A program made the position numbers and the translations under genes. The notes under the pieces are model-generated. The model did no database searches, was not told the origin of the DNA, and saw nothing but the letters and a program-made list of their open reading frames with translations. A DNA stretch of 64,000 bases from a plasmid, in NCBI RefSeq assembly GCF_054482525.1, contig NZ_JBTHVG010000003.1. One strand, given 5' to 3'. How positions within the stretch are numbered: the first letter of the stretch is position 1; each line of letters starts with the position of its first letter. Below, piece after piece: positions 10,495 to 55,655 of the stretch.

Positions 10495-10974
10495 TTAATG
10501 CGCTTTTTTAAAGCGGGCGATCATTTCCGGCACCGGGTCGCAGCCGCTGGTATCGGCGTTTTTGACCGCCTCCAGCGCGCTGGCCACGGTATGGCGAGCG
10601 AGGACGTTTAACGAAGCCTGCTCTGCTTCATCGGCAACCGATTTGAAGTACCAGCAGGCGTTGGCGCTGACCACGCAGCGGGCCGGGACGTCAGGACGCG
10701 ACGCCCACAGTTTTTTATCTTCGATAACCGAAAGATAGATATCACGCAGGGTGATCTTGTCCGCCGGACGGCCAAGATGAATTGAGCCGTTGCGACCAAG
10801 CGTGGAGACGATAATGCCGTCACGAGTTAGCGGAACCATTAGTTTACGGATAAAGCTCGGGTTCGCTTCCAGGCCGTAGGCCAGAATCGCACTCGTCGAA
10901 CGTTCACCCATCTGCTCCGCCATTGCTACGCTGAGAACCATCTGCAAAGCTGTCGGGAAGCGGTAATCTAACAT
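10495..10974 (-). CDS. oqxR: Rrf2-family transcriptional repressor OqxR
   Basis: Convergent to oqxB; start reassigned to internal Met (MLDYRFPTALQ...) because the ORF-track N-terminus reads through the IS26 end. Confidence 0.8.
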   Translation of the reverse strand: MLDYRFPTALQMVLSVAMAEQMGERSTSAILAYGLEANPSFIRKLMVPLTRDGIIVSTLGRNGSIHLGRPADKITLRDIYLSVIEDKKLWASRPDVPARCVVSANACWYFKSVADEAEQASLNVLARHTVASALEAVKNADTSGCDPVPEMIARFKKAH

Positions 10975-11023
10975 GGCAGTGTCCTGGGTTGCGGTGAATC
11001 TTGTTCTTTTTAGCACCGCAGAG

Positions 11024-11843
11024 GGCACTGTTGCAAAGTTAGCGATGAGGCAGCCTTTTGTCTTATTCAAAGGCCTTACATTTCAAAAACTCTGCTTACC
11101 AGGCGCATTTCGCCCAGGGGATCACCATAATAAAATGCTGAGGCCTGGCCTTTGCGTAGTGCACGCATCACCTCAATACCTTTGATGGTGGCGTAAGCCG
11201 TCTTCATGGATTTAAATCCCAGCGTGGCGTTGATTATCCGTTTCAGTTTGCCATGATCGCATTCAATCACGTTGTTCCGGTACTTAATCTGTCGGTGTTC
11301 AACGTCAGACGGGCACCGGCCTTCGCGTTTGAGCAGAGCAAGCGCGCGACCATAGGCGGGCGCTTTATCCGTGTTGATGAATCGTGGGATCTGCCACTTC
11401 TTCACGTTGTTGAGGATTTTACCCAGAAACCGGTATGCAGCTTTGCTGTTACGACGGGAGGAGAGATAAAAATCGACAGTGCGGCCCCGGCTGTCGACGG
11501 CCCGGTACAGATACGCCCAGCGGCCATTGACCTTCACGTAGGTTTCATCCATGTGCCACGGGCAAAGATCGGAAGGGTTACGCCAGTACCAGCGCAGCCG
11601 TTTTTCCATTTCAGGCGCATAACGCTGAACCCAGCGGTAAATCGTGGAGTGATCGACATTCACTCCGCGTTCAGCCAGCATCTCCTGCAGCTCACGGTAA
11701 CTGATGCCGTATTTGCAGTACCAGCGTACGGCCCACAGAATGATGTCACGCTGAAAATGCCGGCCTTTGAATGGGTTCATGTGCAGCTCCATCAGCAAAA
11801 GGGGATGATAAGTTTATCACCACCGACTATTTGCAACAGTGCC
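11024..11843 (-). mobile_element. IS26 copy 3 (same orientation as copy 2; with copy 2 brackets oqxAB-oqxR as a Tn6010-like composite unit)
   Basis: IRs read directly; identical transposase. Confidence 0.95.
11076..11780 (-). CDS. tnpA: IS26 transposase
   Basis: Identical protein to copies 1 and 2. Confidence 0.95.
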   Translation of the reverse strand: MNPFKGRHFQRDIILWAVRWYCKYGISYRELQEMLAERGVNVDHSTIYRWVQRYAPEMEKRLRWYWRNPSDLCPWHMDETYVKVNGRWAYLYRAVDSRGRTVDFYLSSRRNSKAAYRFLGKILNNVKKWQIPRFINTDKAPAYGRALALLKREGRCPSDVEHRQIKYRNNVIECDHGKLKRIINATLGFKSMKTAYATIKGIEVMRALRKGQASAFYYGDPLGEMRLVSRVFEM

Positions 11844-13554: not shown

Positions 13555-13989
13555 ATGTCTGTTATCCTTGAGCACATTAGCAACAAGCCTTACGAAATGG
13601 CACCTTTTTTCAGTGATTTACTGAGCTGTGGAGTGATGAGTCCGTGCGCCGGGCATGAAGATAATGAATTAAATTTGCATGAATATGTAGTCCGTAACCG
13701 CCCCTCAACCTTCTTTGTCAGGGCGGCGGGCCTCAGTATGATCAATGCCGGTATCAATGATGGCGCTATTCTGGTTGTGGATCGGTCTTTAACGGCACGA
13801 CACGGCTCTATCGTCGTTGCGCTGGTGGATGGAGAGTTCACGGTAAAGATCTTACACACGTATCCTGAGCTGCTTTTGATGCCTTCTAATCCAGCCTATA
13901 AGCCGATACGTGTAAATCCCGAATCCCTTGAGATATGGGGCGTCGTCACCTTTGCACTGAATCAGTTTAGCCATGTACATGCACGTTGA
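13555..13989 (+). CDS. UmuD/MucA-like translesion synthesis accessory protein (LexA-like S24 peptidase)
   Basis: 144 aa; ...GLSMINAGINDGAILVVD... S24 core; overlaps the downstream polymerase gene. Confidence 0.75.
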   Translation: MSVILEHISNKPYEMAPFFSDLLSCGVMSPCAGHEDNELNLHEYVVRNRPSTFFVRAAGLSMINAGINDGAILVVDRSLTARHGSIVVALVDGEFTVKILHTYPELLLMPSNPAYKPIRVNPESLEIWGVVTFALNQFSHVHAR

Positions 13990-15232
13990 TATTAACGGGG
14001 CCTATGCGGCATTTGAGTGTGCGATGGATCCCAAGCTGGCAAAAAAGCCGCTCATCATAGCCAGCAATAACGATTCGTCCGTCATTGCAATGAATAAACT
14101 GGCTAAAAGCGTTGGTATTAAGCGTGGGACCCCAATTTTTAAGTGCAGGGATTTGATTCAGCAACACCAGATCGAAGTCCGGAGCTCTAACTTTACTTTG
14201 TATGAAGACTACTCAAATCGCTTCCATGAAACGCTGGAAAGCTTCGCGCCTCAATCGAGTCGATATAGCATAGATGAAAATTTCATGTTATTGAAAAACA
14301 TGAACAAGATAATAGATTATGAAGATTACGGCCGGTTGATCAGAAGTACACTTCTTCATAATCTGTCCCTTACCTGTGGTGTGGGGTGTTCAAGCACCAA
14401 AACCCTGGCTAAATTATGCACCTATGCGAGCAAACGATGGGCAGCTACAGGCGGGGTTGTAGTTTTGACTGATCAGGCCAGGATCAGGAAGCTCCTGGGC
14501 CTTATCAGTACCAGAGAAATATGGGGTATTGGTCAAAAGATCAGTGAACGCCTGTCGGCTTTCGGGATCATCACTGCCGGTGATTTTTATAATAGCGACG
14601 TTCGCTTTTTACGTAAAAGCTTTGGCGTTGAAATCGAGCGTACCTGGCGGGAACTGCATGGCGAACCATGTTTCCGGCTGCATGAATCCCCTCCTGTCCG
14701 GCAACAGATTATCGTTTCCAGAAGTTTTGGTCAGCGCCTTAATGAGATAGGCAAGCTACATGAGGCAGTTTCATTTTTTACCGCCCGGGCGGCAGAGCAG
14801 CTGCGCAAGGATGGCTCGTGGACCCGTCAAATCACAGTCTTCATTCAGAGCAGCAATTATGCGCAAGGTGAAAACCGCTACAGCAATTGTGGTATCGAGC
14901 CGCTTACCGCTACACAGGACACCCGCGATCTGGTTGATGCAGCCATGACCATCCTGAACCGCATTTACAAACCCGGGATAGCGTATGCGAAAGCTGGGGT
15001 AATGCTCTCCGCTATGACTGACGGCACAGAGCAACTCAGCCTGTTTGATGAGCGCCCGGCCAGGCCTGGCAGTCAGGCACTGATGAAAGTTATGGACCGG
15101 TTCAATAAAGAAAAGCGCGGAGCTCTGTTTTTGCTGGGGGAAGGCATTCAACAGGATTTTCGTATGAAACAGGCCATGCTATCACCGAGATATACGACCC
15201 GCTGGGATGAATTACTCGTTGTAAAAGCGTAG
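13973..15232 (+). CDS. UmuC/MucB-like Y-family DNA polymerase
   Basis: 419 aa; ...VGCSSTKTLAKL..., ...RELHGEPC..., C-terminal ...QAMLSPRYTTRWDELLVVKA as in UmuC. Confidence 0.85.
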   Translation: MYMHVDINGAYAAFECAMDPKLAKKPLIIASNNDSSVIAMNKLAKSVGIKRGTPIFKCRDLIQQHQIEVRSSNFTLYEDYSNRFHETLESFAPQSSRYSIDENFMLLKNMNKIIDYEDYGRLIRSTLLHNLSLTCGVGCSSTKTLAKLCTYASKRWAATGGVVVLTDQARIRKLLGLISTREIWGIGQKISERLSAFGIITAGDFYNSDVRFLRKSFGVEIERTWRELHGEPCFRLHESPPVRQQIIVSRSFGQRLNEIGKLHEAVSFFTARAAEQLRKDGSWTRQITVFIQSSNYAQGENRYSNCGIEPLTATQDTRDLVDAAMTILNRIYKPGIAYAKAGVMLSAMTDGTEQLSLFDERPARPGSQALMKVMDRFNKEKRGALFLLGEGIQQDFRMKQAMLSPRYTTRWDELLVVKA

Positions 15233-16193: not shown

Positions 16194-16805
16194 ATGATTA
16201 GGCAGGGCTTTATACTCACAACCGCAATGCTTTTGAGTGGTTGTGGATATCATTTCGCAAACCAGGTAGATGCGTACGATCTAATGCCTCGTCCTGTTAC
16301 AAATAAAAGGTTTCAGATAGTCCCTCCGGACGAAAGTATTCAGTCCAGAATGTTTTCAGGCCGTTTTGCTGATGGATTAGCAAAAAAAGGAGTCATTATT
16401 TCCACTCACCAGCCAGATTATGTGCTCAGGTTCCGAATGAGCAGCTCACAGGAGAACATGCAGTATAGCGAGCAGCTTCTTACTGGGGTGACAGGCTACG
16501 TTGTAGATAAAAAGACAACGAGAACTGACAAGCATGGCGAATCGCATACTGACTATGACTACAGGCCGGTCGATGGGGTAATAGGCACTGAGACGATGTC
16601 GCAGATGCACTATATGCGACAGCTGGATGTCGAGGTATACCCGTCAGCGAAAGGAGCAAAGCAGGTTCTGAAAGTGAGTATGCAAAGCAATGCACCTGTG
16701 CCGTCAGACAGCATTGCTTATTCAGCAATGATCGACGCCTTTACTGATAAATTTGATGCGCCGCTGCGTTCCGGAAATTATGTTGCAGTGATCCCCTGGA
16801 ACTGA
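16194..16805 (+). CDS. Lipoprotein, hypothetical
   Basis: Lipobox LLSGC near N-terminus. Confidence 0.5.
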   Translation: MIRQGFILTTAMLLSGCGYHFANQVDAYDLMPRPVTNKRFQIVPPDESIQSRMFSGRFADGLAKKGVIISTHQPDYVLRFRMSSSQENMQYSEQLLTGVTGYVVDKKTTRTDKHGESHTDYDYRPVDGVIGTETMSQMHYMRQLDVEVYPSAKGAKQVLKVSMQSNAPVPSDSIAYSAMIDAFTDKFDAPLRSGNYVAVIPWN

Positions 16806-16864
16806 AAGCAGACGGCGGGAAGAGAATGTTCAAAAGTGACTTTTGGACACGCACATAAACGTGG

Positions 16865-17287
16865 CTATCGCCCTCCCCCATTAAAATCATAAAGTCGGTA
16901 AAGATCGCCCATCGTGATGGAATTGGGCTTATTAATGATTAGATACTGTAACTGTTCTTTATGTTGAGTACTGGCGGCTGCATTCATAAGCACTTCCAGG
17001 TAGAACTTGTAGCCTATGCTTCGCTCTGAATACATATACTGGAACTGCATCAGTAAAATGCCTGACATAACATACAACAGCAGCAGACTGAGTAACACAG
17101 TGCTATCAGGCTGTTCCAGTGCCATACTGACATACCCTGAACCCAGAATGCACAGAAGCCAACCCGTCATTAGAGCAGGCACCCTACGACTCAGACGTTC
17201 ATAACAACGTTTTATTACGGGATCCCGGAGATACTTTTTGTCAGGTATCCCCGTTGCCCTGATGACGAAGTTACTGAGTATCGACAT
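16865..17287 (-). CDS. Small membrane protein, hypothetical
   Basis: Hydrophobic segments; 140 aa. Confidence 0.4.
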   Translation of the reverse strand: MSILSNFVIRATGIPDKKYLRDPVIKRCYERLSRRVPALMTGWLLCILGSGYVSMALEQPDSTVLLSLLLLYVMSGILLMQFQYMYSERSIGYKFYLEVLMNAAASTQHKEQLQYLIINKPNSITMGDLYRLYDFNGGGR

Positions 17288-17320
17288 CTTTTTTCCTTCT
17301 GGACGCTCTCAGTCAATAAA

Positions 17321-18634: not shown

Positions 18635-19174
18635 GTGTTTACACCACCAGCAGATGATGTGAAACCTATTCCCGTTCCTGATGAGATTTACACTCAGTGC
18701 ATTACGGATGCCGCCCGCTTCTTCGGAATTGATGCCGAACTGGTTTTTACGTTGTTTGACAATGAAGGCGGTAAGGTTGGTACTTTCAGCAGGAATACTA
18801 ACGGCACTTATGATATTGGCCCGATGCAGATCAACTCATCCAATCTGCCTGAAATAAAAAAGCATTTCCCGACTGTAACGTGGCGGGTTCTGGCTTACGA
18901 TGCTTGCGCTAGTTTCTGGGTTGGAACATGGTGGCTCTACAGAAAAATTGTTGATCGCAAGGGCAATGTGTTTGAAGGGATTGCAGATTACAACAGCAAA
19001 ACCCCAAAGGTACGTGCAAAGTACATATTTAACTTCATGGTAAAGTACAATCGCCGGATCCAGCAGCGTAACGGGATGGGTGAGCTTTATCAATGGACCC
19101 AACAACCTCCTCGATACAATGGCCATATAGCTAAAAATGTCCCGGAGCAAAACCCGACTCCTGTTGTTAAATAA
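18635..19174 (+). CDS. Lytic transglycosylase (SLT domain), conjugation-associated peptidoglycan hydrolase
   Basis: ...YDIGPMQINS... lytic transglycosylase signature. Confidence 0.7.
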   Translation: MFTPPADDVKPIPVPDEIYTQCITDAARFFGIDAELVFTLFDNEGGKVGTFSRNTNGTYDIGPMQINSSNLPEIKKHFPTVTWRVLAYDACASFWVGTWWLYRKIVDRKGNVFEGIADYNSKTPKVRAKYIFNFMVKYNRRIQQRNGMGELYQWTQQPPRYNGHIAKNVPEQNPTPVVK

Positions 19175-19256
19175 ATTCAACCTGATATTACAGAAGATCA
19201 TCGAGTAGCTTGGGTACCCCCCCGCAAAAAATTCGCATAGACTCAGGGGTAATAAA

Positions 19257-19823
19257 TTGTCTTTTTCTGCAAGAAATATATTTAAGATTCTCTCTTCTTT
19301 CTTGATGCAGAAAAGCCCTCTTCATGAAGAAGTATGTGTTCCTGAAGAAACAACAGCTGGTTTATGGGGCCCTCTCCCTGATTCGCATGTCGTGCTTTTC
19401 TTAGATTTCGATGGGGTTTGTCACAGGTGCAAAAATGAAACCTTTGAGCGAATGCCATTGGTGGAAAAATTACTGGATAAATGCCCTTCCATGGTGATTG
19501 TCATCTCCAGTTCGTGGCGTGAATGTGCCAGTATAACTTACCTGAAATCTCTTTTCCGGCTACCTTATAGAGACAAAGTCATAGGTGCTACCGATTCGGT
19601 ATATTTAAAACCTAATCAGTCAGGTGTGCGGGCTGCTGAGTGTGAGGACTTTGTATTTTCACATCGAGTTAAAGCATTTATCTGCCTTGATGACGACGAA
19701 TCATTATTCCCGGTCGGTTATCCACATTTGCAAAAAACCAATTATTACACCGGCCTCACCGAATCTGATCTTGCAGCTCTTAACACCAGGTATCATCTGC
19801 TTATGAAACGTTGGGCTTCCTGA
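19257..19823 (+). CDS. Hypothetical protein, possibly HAD-like hydrolase
   Basis: ...LFLDFDGV... DxDG-type motif only; weak. Confidence 0.35.
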   Translation: MSFSARNIFKILSSFLMQKSPLHEEVCVPEETTAGLWGPLPDSHVVLFLDFDGVCHRCKNETFERMPLVEKLLDKCPSMVIVISSSWRECASITYLKSLFRLPYRDKVIGATDSVYLKPNQSGVRAAECEDFVFSHRVKAFICLDDDESLFPVGYPHLQKTNYYTGLTESDLAALNTRYHLLMKRWAS

Positions 19824-50454: not shown

Positions 50455-50496
50455 AAGAAAAAAGGGTTCCTCCGCTTTAGAGGAACCCTTTCAAAA
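50455..50496. terminator. Rho-independent (bidirectional) terminator
   Basis: agggttcctc-cgctttag-aggaaccct hairpin flanked by A-run and T-run. Confidence 0.55.
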
Positions 50497-50545
50497 GGTG
50501 CCGATGGCATACTAATCCACACCCTGAAAAGAGGGGGGTTGCCCC

Positions 50546-51884
50546 CATAAGCGCTAACTTAAGGGTTGTGGTATTACGCCTGATATGATTTAACGTGCCG
50601 ATGAATTACTCTCACGATAACTGGTCAGCAATTCTGGCCCATATTGGTAAGCCCGAAGAACTGGATACTTCGGCACGTAATGCCGGGGCTCTAACCCGCC
50701 GCCGCGAAATTCGTGATGCTGCAACTCTGCTACGTCTGGGGCTGGCTTACGGCCCCGGGGGGATGTCATTACGTGAAGTCACTGCATGGGCTCAGCTCCA
50801 TGACGTTGCAACATTATCTGACGTGGCTCTCCTGAAGCGGCTGCGGAATGCCGCCGACTGGTTTGGCATACTTGCCGCACAAACACTTGCTGTACGCGCC
50901 GCAGTTACGGGTTGTACAAGCGGAAAGAGATTGCGTCTTGTCGATGGAACAGCAATCAGTGCGCCCGGGGGCGGCAGCGCTGAATGGCGACTACATATGG
51001 GATATGATCCTCATACCTGTCAGTTCACTGATTTTGAGCTAACCGACAGCAGAGACGCTGAACGGCTGGACCGATTTGCGCAAACGGCAGACGAGATACG
51101 CATTGCTGACCGGGGATTCGGTTCGCGTCCCGAATGTATCCGCTCACTTGCTTTTGGAGAAGCTGATTATATCGTCCGGGTTCACTGGCGAGGATTGCGC
51201 TGGTTAACTGCAGAAGGAATGCGCTTTGACATGATGGGTTTTCTGCGCGGGCTGGATTGCGGTAAGAACGGTGAAACCACTGTAATGATAGGCAATTCAG
51301 GTAATAAAAAAGCCGGAGCTCCCTTTCCGGCACGTCTCATTGCCGTATCACTTCCTCCCGAAAAAGCATTAATCAGTAAAACCCGACTGCTCAGCGAGAA
51401 TCGTCGAAAAGGACGAGTAGTTCAGGCGGAAACGCTGGAAGCAGCGGGCCATGTGCTATTGCTAACATCATTACCGGAAGATGAATATTCAGCAGAGCAA
51501 GTGGCTGATTGTTACCGTCTGCGATGGCAAATTGAACTGGCTTTTAAGCGGCTCAAAAGTTTGCTGCACCTGGATGCTTTGCGTGCAAAGGAACCTGAAC
51601 TCGCGAAAGCGTGGATATTTGCTAATCTACTCGCCGCATTTTTAATTGACGACATAATCCAGCCATCGCTGGATTTCCCCCCCAGAAGTGCCGGATCCGA
51701 AAAGAAGAACTAACTCGTTGTGGAGAATAACAAAAATGGTCATCTGGAGCTTACAGGTGGCCATTCGTGGGACAGTATCCCTGACAGCCTACAAAACGCA
51801 ATTGAAGAACGCGAGGCATCGTCTTAACGAGGCACCGAGGCGTCGCATTCTTCAGATGGTTCAACCCTTAAGTTAGCGCTTATG
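50546..51884 (+). mobile_element. IS186 (IS4 family) with perfect 23-bp terminal IRs and 11-bp target site duplication GGGGTTGCCCC
   Basis: IRs cataagcgctaacttaagggttg / caacccttaagttagcgcttatg; TSD at 50535-50545 and 51885-51895; boundaries +/-1 bp. Confidence 0.9.
50595..51713 (+). CDS. IS186 transposase (IS4 family DDE)
   Basis: ...MNYSHDNWSAILAHIGKPEELD... and ...DCYRLRWQIELAFKRLKS... signature. Confidence 0.9.
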   Translation: MPMNYSHDNWSAILAHIGKPEELDTSARNAGALTRRREIRDAATLLRLGLAYGPGGMSLREVTAWAQLHDVATLSDVALLKRLRNAADWFGILAAQTLAVRAAVTGCTSGKRLRLVDGTAISAPGGGSAEWRLHMGYDPHTCQFTDFELTDSRDAERLDRFAQTADEIRIADRGFGSRPECIRSLAFGEADYIVRVHWRGLRWLTAEGMRFDMMGFLRGLDCGKNGETTVMIGNSGNKKAGAPFPARLIAVSLPPEKALISKTRLLSENRRKGRVVQAETLEAAGHVLLLTSLPEDEYSAEQVADCYRLRWQIELAFKRLKSLLHLDALRAKEPELAKAWIFANLLAAFLIDDIIQPSLDFPPRSAGSEKKN

Positions 51885-51907
51885 GGGGTTGCCCCCCTCT
51901 TTGTCAG

Positions 51908-52066
51908 CTACTTACCGGATTCGTAGGCCAGGATAGCAAATACCTCCCTTGTTCCGTCTTTCATCCGCAACTCGCAAAGCGAGTTTCGTGTGAGCCAGGT
52001 GAATATCAACAGCGTTAAACAAACTATTAATATGCACAAAACAATGGGTTGGTTCGGCATTTTCAT
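51908..52066 (-). CDS. hok: Hok/Gef-family type I toxin (52 aa)
   Basis: [52 protein letters not shown] matches the Hok family; ORF-track N-terminal extension is a mok-like upstream frame. Confidence 0.8.
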
Positions 52067-52164
52067 GGCCTTCTTCTCCTTGCATTTAAGCAGGCAAGAG
52101 GCTACGCTGTGTGTGACTAGCATACAGGGGCCTCGGGTTGTACTGACCCCAGAAAGTTGGACAG

Positions 52165-53016
52165 TTAAACACGAGGCATATAGGTCTGATTCCGATATTC
52201 AATTGGAGTCAGACCTTTTAATTTCAGGCTAATTCTTCTGCTGTTGTAGTATTCAATATATTCCGTAACAGCATCCTTCAGCTCGCTTATATTACTGAAC
52301 TCATCAAGATAAAAACACTCCGACTTTAAGGTTCCAAAGAAACACTCCACCACAGCATTATCCAGACAATTGCCTTTTCTGGACATGCTTTGTTTAATAC
52401 CATGTTCTTTAAGGATATTTTGATATCTTCTCATACGATACTGCCATCCCTGGTCAGAGTGCAGAACAGGATGCTCGTGAGGATTAAGCTTTTTGAATGC
52501 CTGATCGAGCATATTCTCGACCATGTTCATCACTGGTCTTTCCGAAAGGCTGTAAGAAATAACTTCGTTGTTGAAGAGATCTATTACTGGAGACAAATAC
52601 AGCTTGCGCCCATTGACTGCAAATTCAGTAACATCGGTAACCCACTTCTCGTTTGGCCGCGTAGCCTTGAAATCTCTTTGGAGAACATTGGGGGCGGTTT
52701 GCCCTACCTCTCCTCTGTAAGAGCGGTATCGCTTGACCTTAATCGCTGCCTTCAGTGAGAGGATTCCCATCAGGCGCTGAACAGCTTTATGGTTAATCTG
52801 TTTCCCTTCTCGATGAAGAGACAGCGTTACCCTACGGTATCCGTATCGGCCTCTATTCTCATGATAAATCTCACCAATACGCTTTTTAACGTCCGCATAC
52901 TTGTCAGGCTTGCTGAGAGCCTTTAGATGGTAATAAAACGTACTGCGCGGTATCTCCGCAGCCCTGAGAAGCTCATCAAGAGGATAAAACTGCCTTAGCT
53001 CGTTGAGTACTTTCAC
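52165..53016 (-). CDS. IS150 transposase OrfB (DDE domain)
   Basis: 283 aa; IS3-family integrase core. Confidence 0.9.
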
Positions 53017-53534
53017 TTTTTCGTGGGATGAGCTAAGGCTTTCAGCTTTTTTAGATACACAAGCCGCGTTTCAAGAAATCGAACTTGCCTTTCAAGATCC
53101 TCAATGCGTCGGTCTTTTGACAGCTCCAATGCTGATGCCGCTTTTTCTGGATCAACTGATATTGCAATGTTTCTTTTGGTGCCAATCTTGAGCGCGCGTA
53201 AACCAGCTTCTCCGCGCTCTTCATAAACCTTCAGCCACCTGGCTACAGAACCACTACCAGCAAGCATAAAGTGAGCAGCAGCCTGATTAAGGGACATGTG
53301 CTGCTCGATCACCGCTTTCACGACCTTAATACGCAACTCAGGATCAGCACTAACACCTTTAGGTTTGGGAATTAAACCTTTTTCTCCATGTTTTTCATAG
53401 AGGGCAACCCATGTCCTGACCTGGGTTCGGGGGACACCAAAACGTGCCGAGATGATCCTGTAACCATCATCAGTAGTGAAGTAGTGATTCACGACTTCAA
53501 GGCGCTTTTCAAAAGGGTATTTTGGCTTTGACAT
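53013..53534 (-). CDS. IS150 transposase OrfA (HTH)
   Basis: 173 aa; overlaps orfB as expected for a frameshift-fusion arrangement. Confidence 0.9.
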   Translation of the reverse strand: MSKPKYPFEKRLEVVNHYFTTDDGYRIISARFGVPRTQVRTWVALYEKHGEKGLIPKPKGVSADPELRIKVVKAVIEQHMSLNQAAAHFMLAGSGSVARWLKVYEERGEAGLRALKIGTKRNIAISVDPEKAASALELSKDRRIEDLERQVRFLETRLVYLKKLKALAHPTKK

Positions 53535-53866
53535 ATCAGGGGCTATTCCATTTCATCGTCCAACAAAATGGGTGCAGTACAGGTTAATTGAAAAATTACT
53601 CGGGGCTTTCTGCTTTTACCACAGTCAAACAGTGTTACCGCTGGCTGGGGCAAAAGCCTCCAGCACCAGCGTCATTATATCACTCTGCCCTGATCAGCCA
53701 AACACCCTGCCTGCATAAATCATTGATTTATAATTTATTTGACATGAGTCACTTCCGGTTGTCGGAGACAGTCTTTTTACACTAAAGAAAAGGGTAACGG
53801 GCAGCTGCTTGGTCGGAACATACAGTGCAGTTCCTGCCCGTTTAATTTCCGGATGCAATGGTAGGA

Positions 53867-54687: not shown

Positions 54688-54969
54688 TTACTCTTTTTCC
54701 TGCATAGCGGCTTTTTCAGCCCGGGTGGCCAGGCGAGCATTTCCGAAAGGTTCACGGACAAGCAGGGGCTTCTCCTTCTTCCAGCCCCTGATAGCCGTTT
54801 CTCCAAAACGACGTGGTGCATTGCCGTTCCAGCGAGCAATCACATGATTATCATGAATTTCTATAATGACAACGGGGTGGACAATGACCGTTGTAATGGT
54901 GGTATTTCCCATTTTGGTACGGGTTACAGACCAAACCTGCATCCCGGATTCCAGCTGGCTGATTTTCAT
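54688..54969 (-). CDS. Hypothetical protein
   Basis: 93-aa ORF. Confidence 0.3.
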   Translation of the reverse strand: MKISQLESGMQVWSVTRTKMGNTTITTVIVHPVVIIEIHDNHVIARWNGNAPRRFGETAIRGWKKEKPLLVREPFGNARLATRAEKAAMQEKE

Positions 54970-55343
54970 ATTATATCCTTAAGCCAACACGAACTGCGCC
55001 ACAAAAATTAATGTGGCGCAATTTACCATAAACAATAAACATCAGATACCCGTGAAGAGATTTCCCTTTATTTTAAAATTCTTCTGGAGAAAAAATGATA
55101 TTTCCAGAAGAAGTCAGCGAAATTCAGAAACGGCCATCACAATGGTGCTGCGCTGACGCTGGCGTTCTGCCTTGCGCTGCCTGCGGCGATAGATCTATTT
55201 TGCGCTGACGTAAGGGCAGTCCTCACGGGTATACCAGCAGCAGCCGCAAGGTTCGGGCCGGGGTTTTCCGGCAAGTCCAAATGGTTTCATCAAGTCACCT
55301 TTTTAATATTTTTAATGGCAAGATACTTCCCTAACACATTGTT

Positions 55344-55655
55344 TTATCGCATATAACGCTGTTGCATAAACAGATACAGATAACCCTCAGGAGAAAACAT
55401 GCAAAGGTTATCAGTGATAACCGCATCCAGATACCGAGTGTCAGTCTGTAAACGTTTTATCACCAGAAAATGTGCTGCCGCAGCCTTAATGCCAGAACTA
55501 CCGTTTACAACATTATGTATACCCGCTTCGAATAACGAACGAGCATGAATTACCTTTTCCCGGGCCGCTTCGATCTCCGCATTAATAACGCATTGCCGCG
55601 CCTGGATGACTGCCTCTCCGGTTAAATCGCGGAAATTCATTAGAGATGTGATCAT
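55344..55655 (-). CDS. Hypothetical protein
   Basis: 103-aa ORF. Confidence 0.35.
   Translation of the reverse strand: MITSLMNFRDLTGEAVIQARQCVINAEIEAAREKVIHARSLFEAGIHNVVNGSSGIKAAAAHFLVIKRLQTDTRYLDAVITDNLCMFSPEGYLYLFMQQRYMR

Follow-up and report, generated by a model that had tools for sequence, protein, structure and literature searches.

Between two annotated genes on the minus strand of a 64,000-nucleotide (64-kb) stretch of plasmid DNA (the window), an earlier note singled out a 31-codon, cysteine-rich reading frame as possibly a small metal-binding peptide, or nothing, and proposed that it be judged by the conservation of the frame in related plasmids and by its translation signals. The question raised by this locus is therefore whether so short a frame belongs to a gene and, if so, to which one. 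The frame lies at 55195-55290 on the minus strand, as the note gave it, and translates as MKPFGLAGKPRPEPCGCCWYTREDCPYVSAK followed by a stop; its neighbours at 54688-54969 (93 aa) and 55344-55655 (103 aa) are RefSeq hypothetical proteins in identical plasmids. The five cysteines claimed for the peptide come to four on counting (C15, C17, C18 and C25). The feature is real but ordinary: a copy, cut short by an amber codon, of a small protein that databases already list as hypothetical.

An amber codon within a 58-codon frame

The features at the locus are as follows.

55195..55290, minus strand: truncated 31-codon ORF, with ATG at 55290-55288 and amber stop TAG at 55197-55195, equivalent to codons 1-31 of WP_000802040.1
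55295..55301, minus strand: Shine-Dalgarno-like AAGGTGA, 4 nt 5' of the mini-ORF ATG
55114..55290, minus strand: ancestral 58-codon frame with its natural TGA at 55116-55114, broken in the window by the amber codon only
55195..55197, minus strand: amber codon 32; the derived base is at plus-strand position 55197 (a here, g in the intact allele)

The mini-ORF shares its ATG with WP_000802040.1, a 58-aa 'hypothetical protein' (MKPFGLAGKPRPEPCGCCWYTREDCPYVSAKQIYRRRQRKAERQRQRSTIVMAVSEFR) that is annotated as a third CDS at this locus in the near-identical plasmids NZ_CP073985 and NZ_CP097364. In alignment, the window and the intact allele are one base apart, a C to T change that turns CAG (Gln32) into TAG. 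The window frame translates as ...VSAK*IYRRRQRKAERQRQRSTIVMAVSEFR*, with the codons after the stop unchanged and in frame to the natural TGA; codons 1-31 are identical to those of WP_000802040.1, and codons 33-58 would be too. Because a single CAG to TAG difference is seen in both alignment and translations, the mini-ORF is very probably a nonsense-truncated allele of a genuine 58-codon gene of the IncHI1/IncHI2 backbone, whose full protein is probably nucleic-acid-binding and whose 31-residue remnant is most likely a loss-of-function product. None of the analyses run contradicted the truncation. Thus, the 31-codon gene that the earlier note envisaged exists as an ORF; it is not free-standing, and forms the 5' part of a 58-codon gene cut by the change from CAG to TAG.

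The window copy has the locus, ATG, Shine-Dalgarno (SD) sequence and synteny of WP_000802040.1 (UniProt A0A142CPP8; IncHI2 plasmids R478 and pAPEC-O1-R) and of WP_000802039.1 and WP_162859439.1 (IncHI1-type plasmids), and differs from the first by TAG for CAG at codon 32, with which only 31 residues are possible. Compared with the family of the 58-aa protein, it is homologous over the whole length, including MKP[FY]G, GCC[WFY] and RRxQRKxxR, except at codon 32, and in the IncHI backbone array it is flanked by the ~105-aa gene and the 93-aa gene. The uninterrupted frame of ~56-65 codons is lost to the TAG at codon 32, and the window copy is for this reason a truncated or pseudogene allele and not an intact member. 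The NCBI pipeline PGAP calls the 58-aa CDS only where codon 32 is CAG, and leaves the TAG-bearing stretch without any annotation, pseudogene included. A nonsense allele of one small backbone gene thereby accounts for a 370-bp annotation gap in hundreds of IncHI2 resistance plasmids. The practical importance of this is little, and the truncated ORF is not a new kind of element; what is added to the earlier note is the true length of the gene, the single-base cause and a split of about 50:50 between the alleles among IncHI2-type plasmids.

Low-level read-through of the amber codon could still give some full-length protein, in which case the gene would be down-tuned and not dead. The unchanged, in-frame sequence past the stop is compatible with this, as is the origin of TAG from CAG, by which insertion of glutamine would give the exact wild type. 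However, read-through of UAG occurs naturally in wild-type enterobacteria at a generally low level, and the window encodes no suppressor tRNA, nor any tRNA; only a slight chance is given to read-through.

A separate observation concerns laboratory strains. A supE (glnV) host inserts glutamine at amber codons and, with the amber at 55195-55197 derived from CAG, would restore the exact wild-type 58-aa protein. The phenotypes of TAG plasmids could therefore differ between supE cloning strains and wild isolates.

Coding constraint and distribution of the two alleles

The length of the mini-ORF, taken as a bare ORF, does not exceed chance, as 338 ORFs of 31 codons or more begin with ATG in the window. 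It rises above chance because it is conserved in other plasmids, not through its own ORF statistics. The abundance of such ORFs, together with the absence of any PGAP annotation there in TAG plasmids, is what could favour a non-coding origin of the conserved element, either as an RNA or DNA structure or as a chance ORF in an intergenic spacer. The substitution pattern argues against this. Differences between IncHI2- and IncHI1-type copies number 9, 10 and 27 at codon positions 1, 2 and 3, and dN/dS is 0.11-0.13 in the 58-codon frame (dS ~1.4-1.6) vs 0.95-2.0 in the remaining two same-strand frames. Furthermore, this is the only frame free of stops in all ten homologous loci, protein-level homologues at 30-45% identity keep both the length and the MKP[FY]G start, and a covariance-model scan of the region found no Rfam family overlapping 55114-55290. 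The Rfam matches at E <= 1e-4 in the region are sok-like only and lie about 1.5-3 kb from the frame, and two more, at E 0.0085 and 0.37, match eukaryotic miRNA models at other places in the region. A non-coding element, to which next to no credence is attached, is thus effectively refuted by the substitution pattern and the open-frame test.

The IncHI1-type orthologue (56-58 aa) has ~72% amino-acid identity and occupies the same position, and the synteny of the small gene is conserved in IncHI1 and IncHI2. The SD region, AAAGGTGAC, is invariant between IncHI2- and IncHI1-type copies, and an SD-like motif precedes the ATG in all ten homologues. An IncHI1-type E. coli record (H60) matches the window DNA over the ORF only (query 502-653, 82.5%), and the gene is therefore better conserved than its flanks. 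Both checks proposed at the outset thus turned out in favour of the frame, which is kept in related plasmids under purifying selection and has a ribosome-binding site 4 nt before its ATG; with the selection and the conserved SD, the suggestion that it might be nothing fails. By these comparisons, the 58 codons form a genuine gene on which purifying selection is strong.

In PLSDB, 1 kb of sequence around the ORF has matches in 1,058 plasmids, which are 190-450 kb in size and come from Escherichia, Salmonella, Enterobacter, Klebsiella and Citrobacter; nearly all are conjugative and encode a MOBH relaxase. The same stretch has 251 records in complete E. coli genomes, plasmids in nearly every case. 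The matches include R478 and pAPEC-O1-R, which identifies the window as IncHI2 backbone. The alleles were counted as follows.

PLSDB, 71-mer centred on the mutation: TAG, 521 exact matches with nothing annotated; CAG, 481 matches with one mismatch, annotated 'hypothetical protein' in nearly all sampled records
PLSDB, tblastn with the intact protein: TAG, 526 at 98.3% (stop); CAG, 472 at 100%; diverged intact IncHI1-type, 259 at 60-80%
Complete E. coli genomes, 71-mer: TAG, 217 of 247 records (88%); CAG, 30 of 247

Four further plasmids were found by the PLSDB tblastn at 90-95% identity. A one-base marker (window 55197, A vs G) hence splits the IncHI2-type plasmids into two roughly equal groups, and CAG is kept by R478 (Serratia), pAPEC-O1-R and most Enterobacter hormaechei plasmids. 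Codon 32 encodes Pro or Thr in the outgroup clades and every other homologue is intact; thus TAG is the derived state. The CAG-bearing plasmid NZ_CP073985 has 99.8% identity to the window over 1 kb and has a nearby IS150 in common with it. Given this near-identity, the amber mutation is placed as a recent event in a single sublineage of the backbone, now very common. The TAG copies are all nearly identical, essentially one haplotype, and hence give no power to test relaxed selection past the stop.

In a collection of ~15 billion predicted proteins, the 58-aa protein occurs on at least 1,000 contigs, and a 31/32-aa product is absent. Rare singleton variants of the small protein (P0006, P0002, P0007 and P0008) have frameshifted or chimeric C-termini and are either independent disruptions or assembly errors. 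One singleton variant has a frameshift at about codon 32, on a 286-kb E. coli contig.

Protein family and candidate function

Relatives of the 58-aa protein were sought exhaustively with a HMMER profile against 1.84 billion representative proteins and with a word-indexed search of 5.8 billion. The family is small and narrow, and the profile recovers it at E down to 1e-27. Its distant members (56-65 aa, 29-59% identity) occur in unrelated contexts, all start with MKP[FY]G and share GK...C..GCC[WFY]..E[DE]...RRxQRKxxRQ. The 58-aa protein and its relatives have no Pfam or NCBIfam match, and PADLOC matched none of 13 family members; the profiles of known defence and anti-defence families, Pfam Antirestrict included, thus gave no match. 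The protein is also strongly basic, unlike the acidic DNA mimics among anti-defence proteins. In PHROGs, two family members gave a marginal match (E = 7e-4 and 3e-3) to the unnamed phrog_10765, a phage family with a 70-position profile and no function attached; the weak match is aligned from residue 1. A tblastn search of 50,697 phage genomes gave no match, and an IMG/VR scan gave no confirmed relative.

AlphaFold2 modelling of the small protein from a 13-sequence alignment (mean pLDDT 68) predicts residues 1-30 as low-confidence coil and residues 31-57 as a confident helix (block-mean pLDDT 77-90). The amber codon 32 therefore removes essentially the sole predicted structural element. The C-terminal 27 aa have a pI of 12 and nine K/R residues, and the remaining 31-mer has a pI of 8.5. 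In the N-terminal part, GCC is present in 12 of the 13 aligned members (GHC in P0013), together with one further upstream cysteine, the third that is conserved, at a variable position (13 or 15 of the alignment). In distant members Asn or Val takes the place of Cys25; some of these have a His close by, and others (P0010 and P0016) offer no fourth ligand. A small metal site in the N-terminal segment is possible; a strict four-ligand motif is not supported.

The full-length protein would thus consist of a conserved N-terminal segment, MKPFG..GK..C.GCC[WFY]..ED, in which three conserved cysteines may hold a metal, followed by an arginine-rich α-helix, YRRRQRKAERQRQR, that would most likely bind nucleic acid, either RNA or DNA. 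We infer that it is a small nucleic-acid-binding factor of the plasmid's small accessory gene array.

The basic helix also resembles the boxB-binding arginine-rich motif (ARM) helix of lambda N. The N-terminal boxB-binding helix of lambda N is RRRERRAEKQAQ; against it, RRRQRKAERQRQ has 8 of 12 residues identical (pairwise E = 0.003). The basic motif of the small protein is C-terminal, after the Cys-bearing segment, whereas that of lambda N is N-terminal. The family profile found no N peptide or any RNA-binding chain at significance in the PDB, with no N peptide at E <= 10; the basic helix drew only non-significant matches (E >= 0.1), to RNA-binding or ribosomal proteins. In addition, no conserved hairpin that could be a boxB-like target is common to the IncHI1- and IncHI2-type loci. 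Homology to lambda-N-type ARM antiterminators was therefore rejected as a 12-residue compositional resemblance, and the likeness of the helix to ARM peptides is one of analogy, not of membership.

The predicted structure also bears on the proposal that the 31-residue peptide is itself functional here, for example as a Cys-rich metal- or target-binding peptide, and that the amber allele is an adaptive shortening. Its SD and ATG are intact, and the N-terminal 31 residues that it keeps are the most conserved of the family, with invariant columns and a dN/dS of 0.05-0.09 vs 0.11-0.30 in the C-terminal half. Furthermore, over 500 plasmids carry the TAG allele, which is dominant in E. coli. However, an epidemic backbone that spreads clonally can account for these numbers, as the TAG copies form essentially one recent haplotype. 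The short form is found in no other lineage, every homologue being 56-65 aa long with the basic helix, and no gene caller has deposited a 31/32-aa product among the ~15 billion proteins. The amber codon also deletes the only confidently predicted structure, and the cysteine pattern is not conserved as a four-ligand site. A function for the 31-mer is thus considered improbable, and loss of function is preferred; some residual activity may be kept, as the 31-mer retains the more constrained half of the protein. In the lineage of the window, ribosomes would start at the ATG and end after residue 31. The resulting 3.5-kDa peptide would lack the basic helix and would most likely be a loss-of-function form tolerated by the plasmid. 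The simplest view of the amber allele would be a tolerated loss that hitch-hikes with the epidemic IncHI2 backbone.

A bolder proposal, and a long shot, is that the 58-aa protein could found an undescribed class of small mobile-element establishment factors, in which a Cys-knuckle and an arginine-rich helix bind RNA, DNA or a component of host defence, and that its amber inactivation could then be adaptive in the mcr-1-era IncHI2 lineage. If this were true, the loss might have removed a cost or a restriction of host range, as opposed to neutral hitch-hiking, in an epidemic lineage that dominates E. coli and Salmonella. The intact family is strongly constrained and wholly uncharacterised, and occurs in establishment-type arrays in several groups of plasmids as well as on one or more phage-like contigs. 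Such small proteins are candidates for anti-defence or regulatory factors, and a natural knockout of one spreads well here.

Gene array around the small gene and its relatives

Three further features of the locus are relevant to its neighbourhood.

55344..55655, minus strand: upstream 103-aa gene, phrog_8549-like and helical; a conserved neighbour of the small gene in IncHI-like clades
54688..54969, minus strand: downstream 93-aa gene, preceded by an SD of its own and part of the same co-directional array
55079..55112, minus strand: hairpin with a 10-bp stem and a 14-nt loop, then TTTTAAAAT; it starts 2 nt past the natural stop (-15.3 kcal/mol, z = -2.2)

The small gene belongs to a minus-strand co-directional array of small genes (hok, a 201-aa gene, the 93-aa gene, the mini-ORF gap, the 103-aa gene and three ~70-aa genes). 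The same IncHI array also carries DUF3085, DUF957, DUF6012, HNH and PAPS-reductase-like genes and an orphan DNA methyltransferase. A ~105-aa gene is always directly upstream of the small gene in IncHI-like clades (36-61% identity, five lineages) and is not conserved in distant clades; the small protein is probably co-expressed with this helical partner. In an AlphaFold2 linker fusion of the two, the partner was modelled at pLDDT 76-91 and the small protein remained undocked at 35-54, with no confident contact between them. Foldseek searches with the fusion model found nothing in the PDB and, in BFVD, matched the partner to an uncharacterised protein of Cronobacter phage CR8 that carries no functional label.

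The hairpin at 55079..55112 may, from its sequence, be a weak terminator of a two-gene unit; the terminator scan did not call it, and it is not conserved in IncHI1-type copies. The promoter and terminator scan around the small gene gave results at chance level. A second, GC-rich hairpin (GCGCCACA-8 nt-TGTGGCGC) lies at 54997-55020, past the end of the 58-codon frame and ahead of the next gene's SD, and short hairpins are found just 5' of the homologues' SD at other loci (L009/L013, L017, L016, L012 and L010). These hairpins may be inter-cistronic terminators or processing sites.

Plasmid leading regions carry small anti-defence and establishment genes, such as ArdA, KlcA, PsiB, SSB and orphan methylases (Samuel et al. 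2024, PMC11541004). The small gene likewise has its place among many small genes in a long co-directional array, and the IncHI array appears to resemble a leading or establishment region in its hok, DUF3085, DUF957 and orphan methyltransferase genes. The neighbours of distant homologues include ArdA-like, DUF1380, DndB, hok, HNH and PAPS-reductase genes, and other relatives adjoin hok, DUF3085, DUF6012 and PAPS-reductase-like genes. One distant homologue (P0016), on a Citrobacter-type plasmid of ~87 kb, shares its transcription unit with ArdA-like and DUF1380-like genes in an array rich in ArdA, DndB, RadC and DUF4942. As in leading-region systems, this unit is accompanied by repeated promoter-like modules: a ~550-nt repeat with a promoter-like box at its end is present in six copies, which bracket the unit. 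The copies at this locus (L013; 80-100% identical, 2.3-5.9 kb apart) are listed below.

1690-2237
7564-8111
10844-11392
13832-14379
16741-17288
19017-19548

At the end of each repeat are a TATAAT-like box and a conserved leader; the 3' part recurs in shorter form at other operon starts. From their sequence, the repeats look like promoter or ssDNA-promoter modules of a leading region. Repeated Frpo-like modules were not found in the array of the window. A literature search returned no relevant statement on the accession or on the IncHI array as a leading region, and the R27 transcriptome paper does not list the small gene.

Several minor observations were made in these arrays. Gene callers place spurious antisense ORFs of 93-99 aa inside the L013 repeats. 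On the opposite strand of the same ArdA-rich array, a 70-aa gene matches Ribosomal_L31 (PF01197; L013 18389-18601), and the gene is also present in L014 and L015. A 60-aa homologue is encoded on a 154-kb contig with a terminase. In a phage-type clade (L011 1534-1722 and L016 10167-10346), the small gene is followed by an overlapping gene for a basic protein of 59-62 aa with CxC...CxxC (56% identity), which could be an alternative partner to the ~105-aa protein of the IncHI plasmids.

In the window itself, IS150 occupies 52140-53581, ~110 nt upstream of the hok CDS and inside the hok/sok leader (flanks 51884-52139 and 53582-53668), and a 4-nt overlap looks like the target duplication. Rfam sok matches lie on either side of it, at 52064-52218 (34 bits) and 53505-53668 (47 bits), both below the gathering score of 59. 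Compared with pAGR6137a, the window has ~1.3 kb extra just beyond hok, where the match of that locus (L001, 106-193 and 181-436) jumps from 50457-50546 to 51884.
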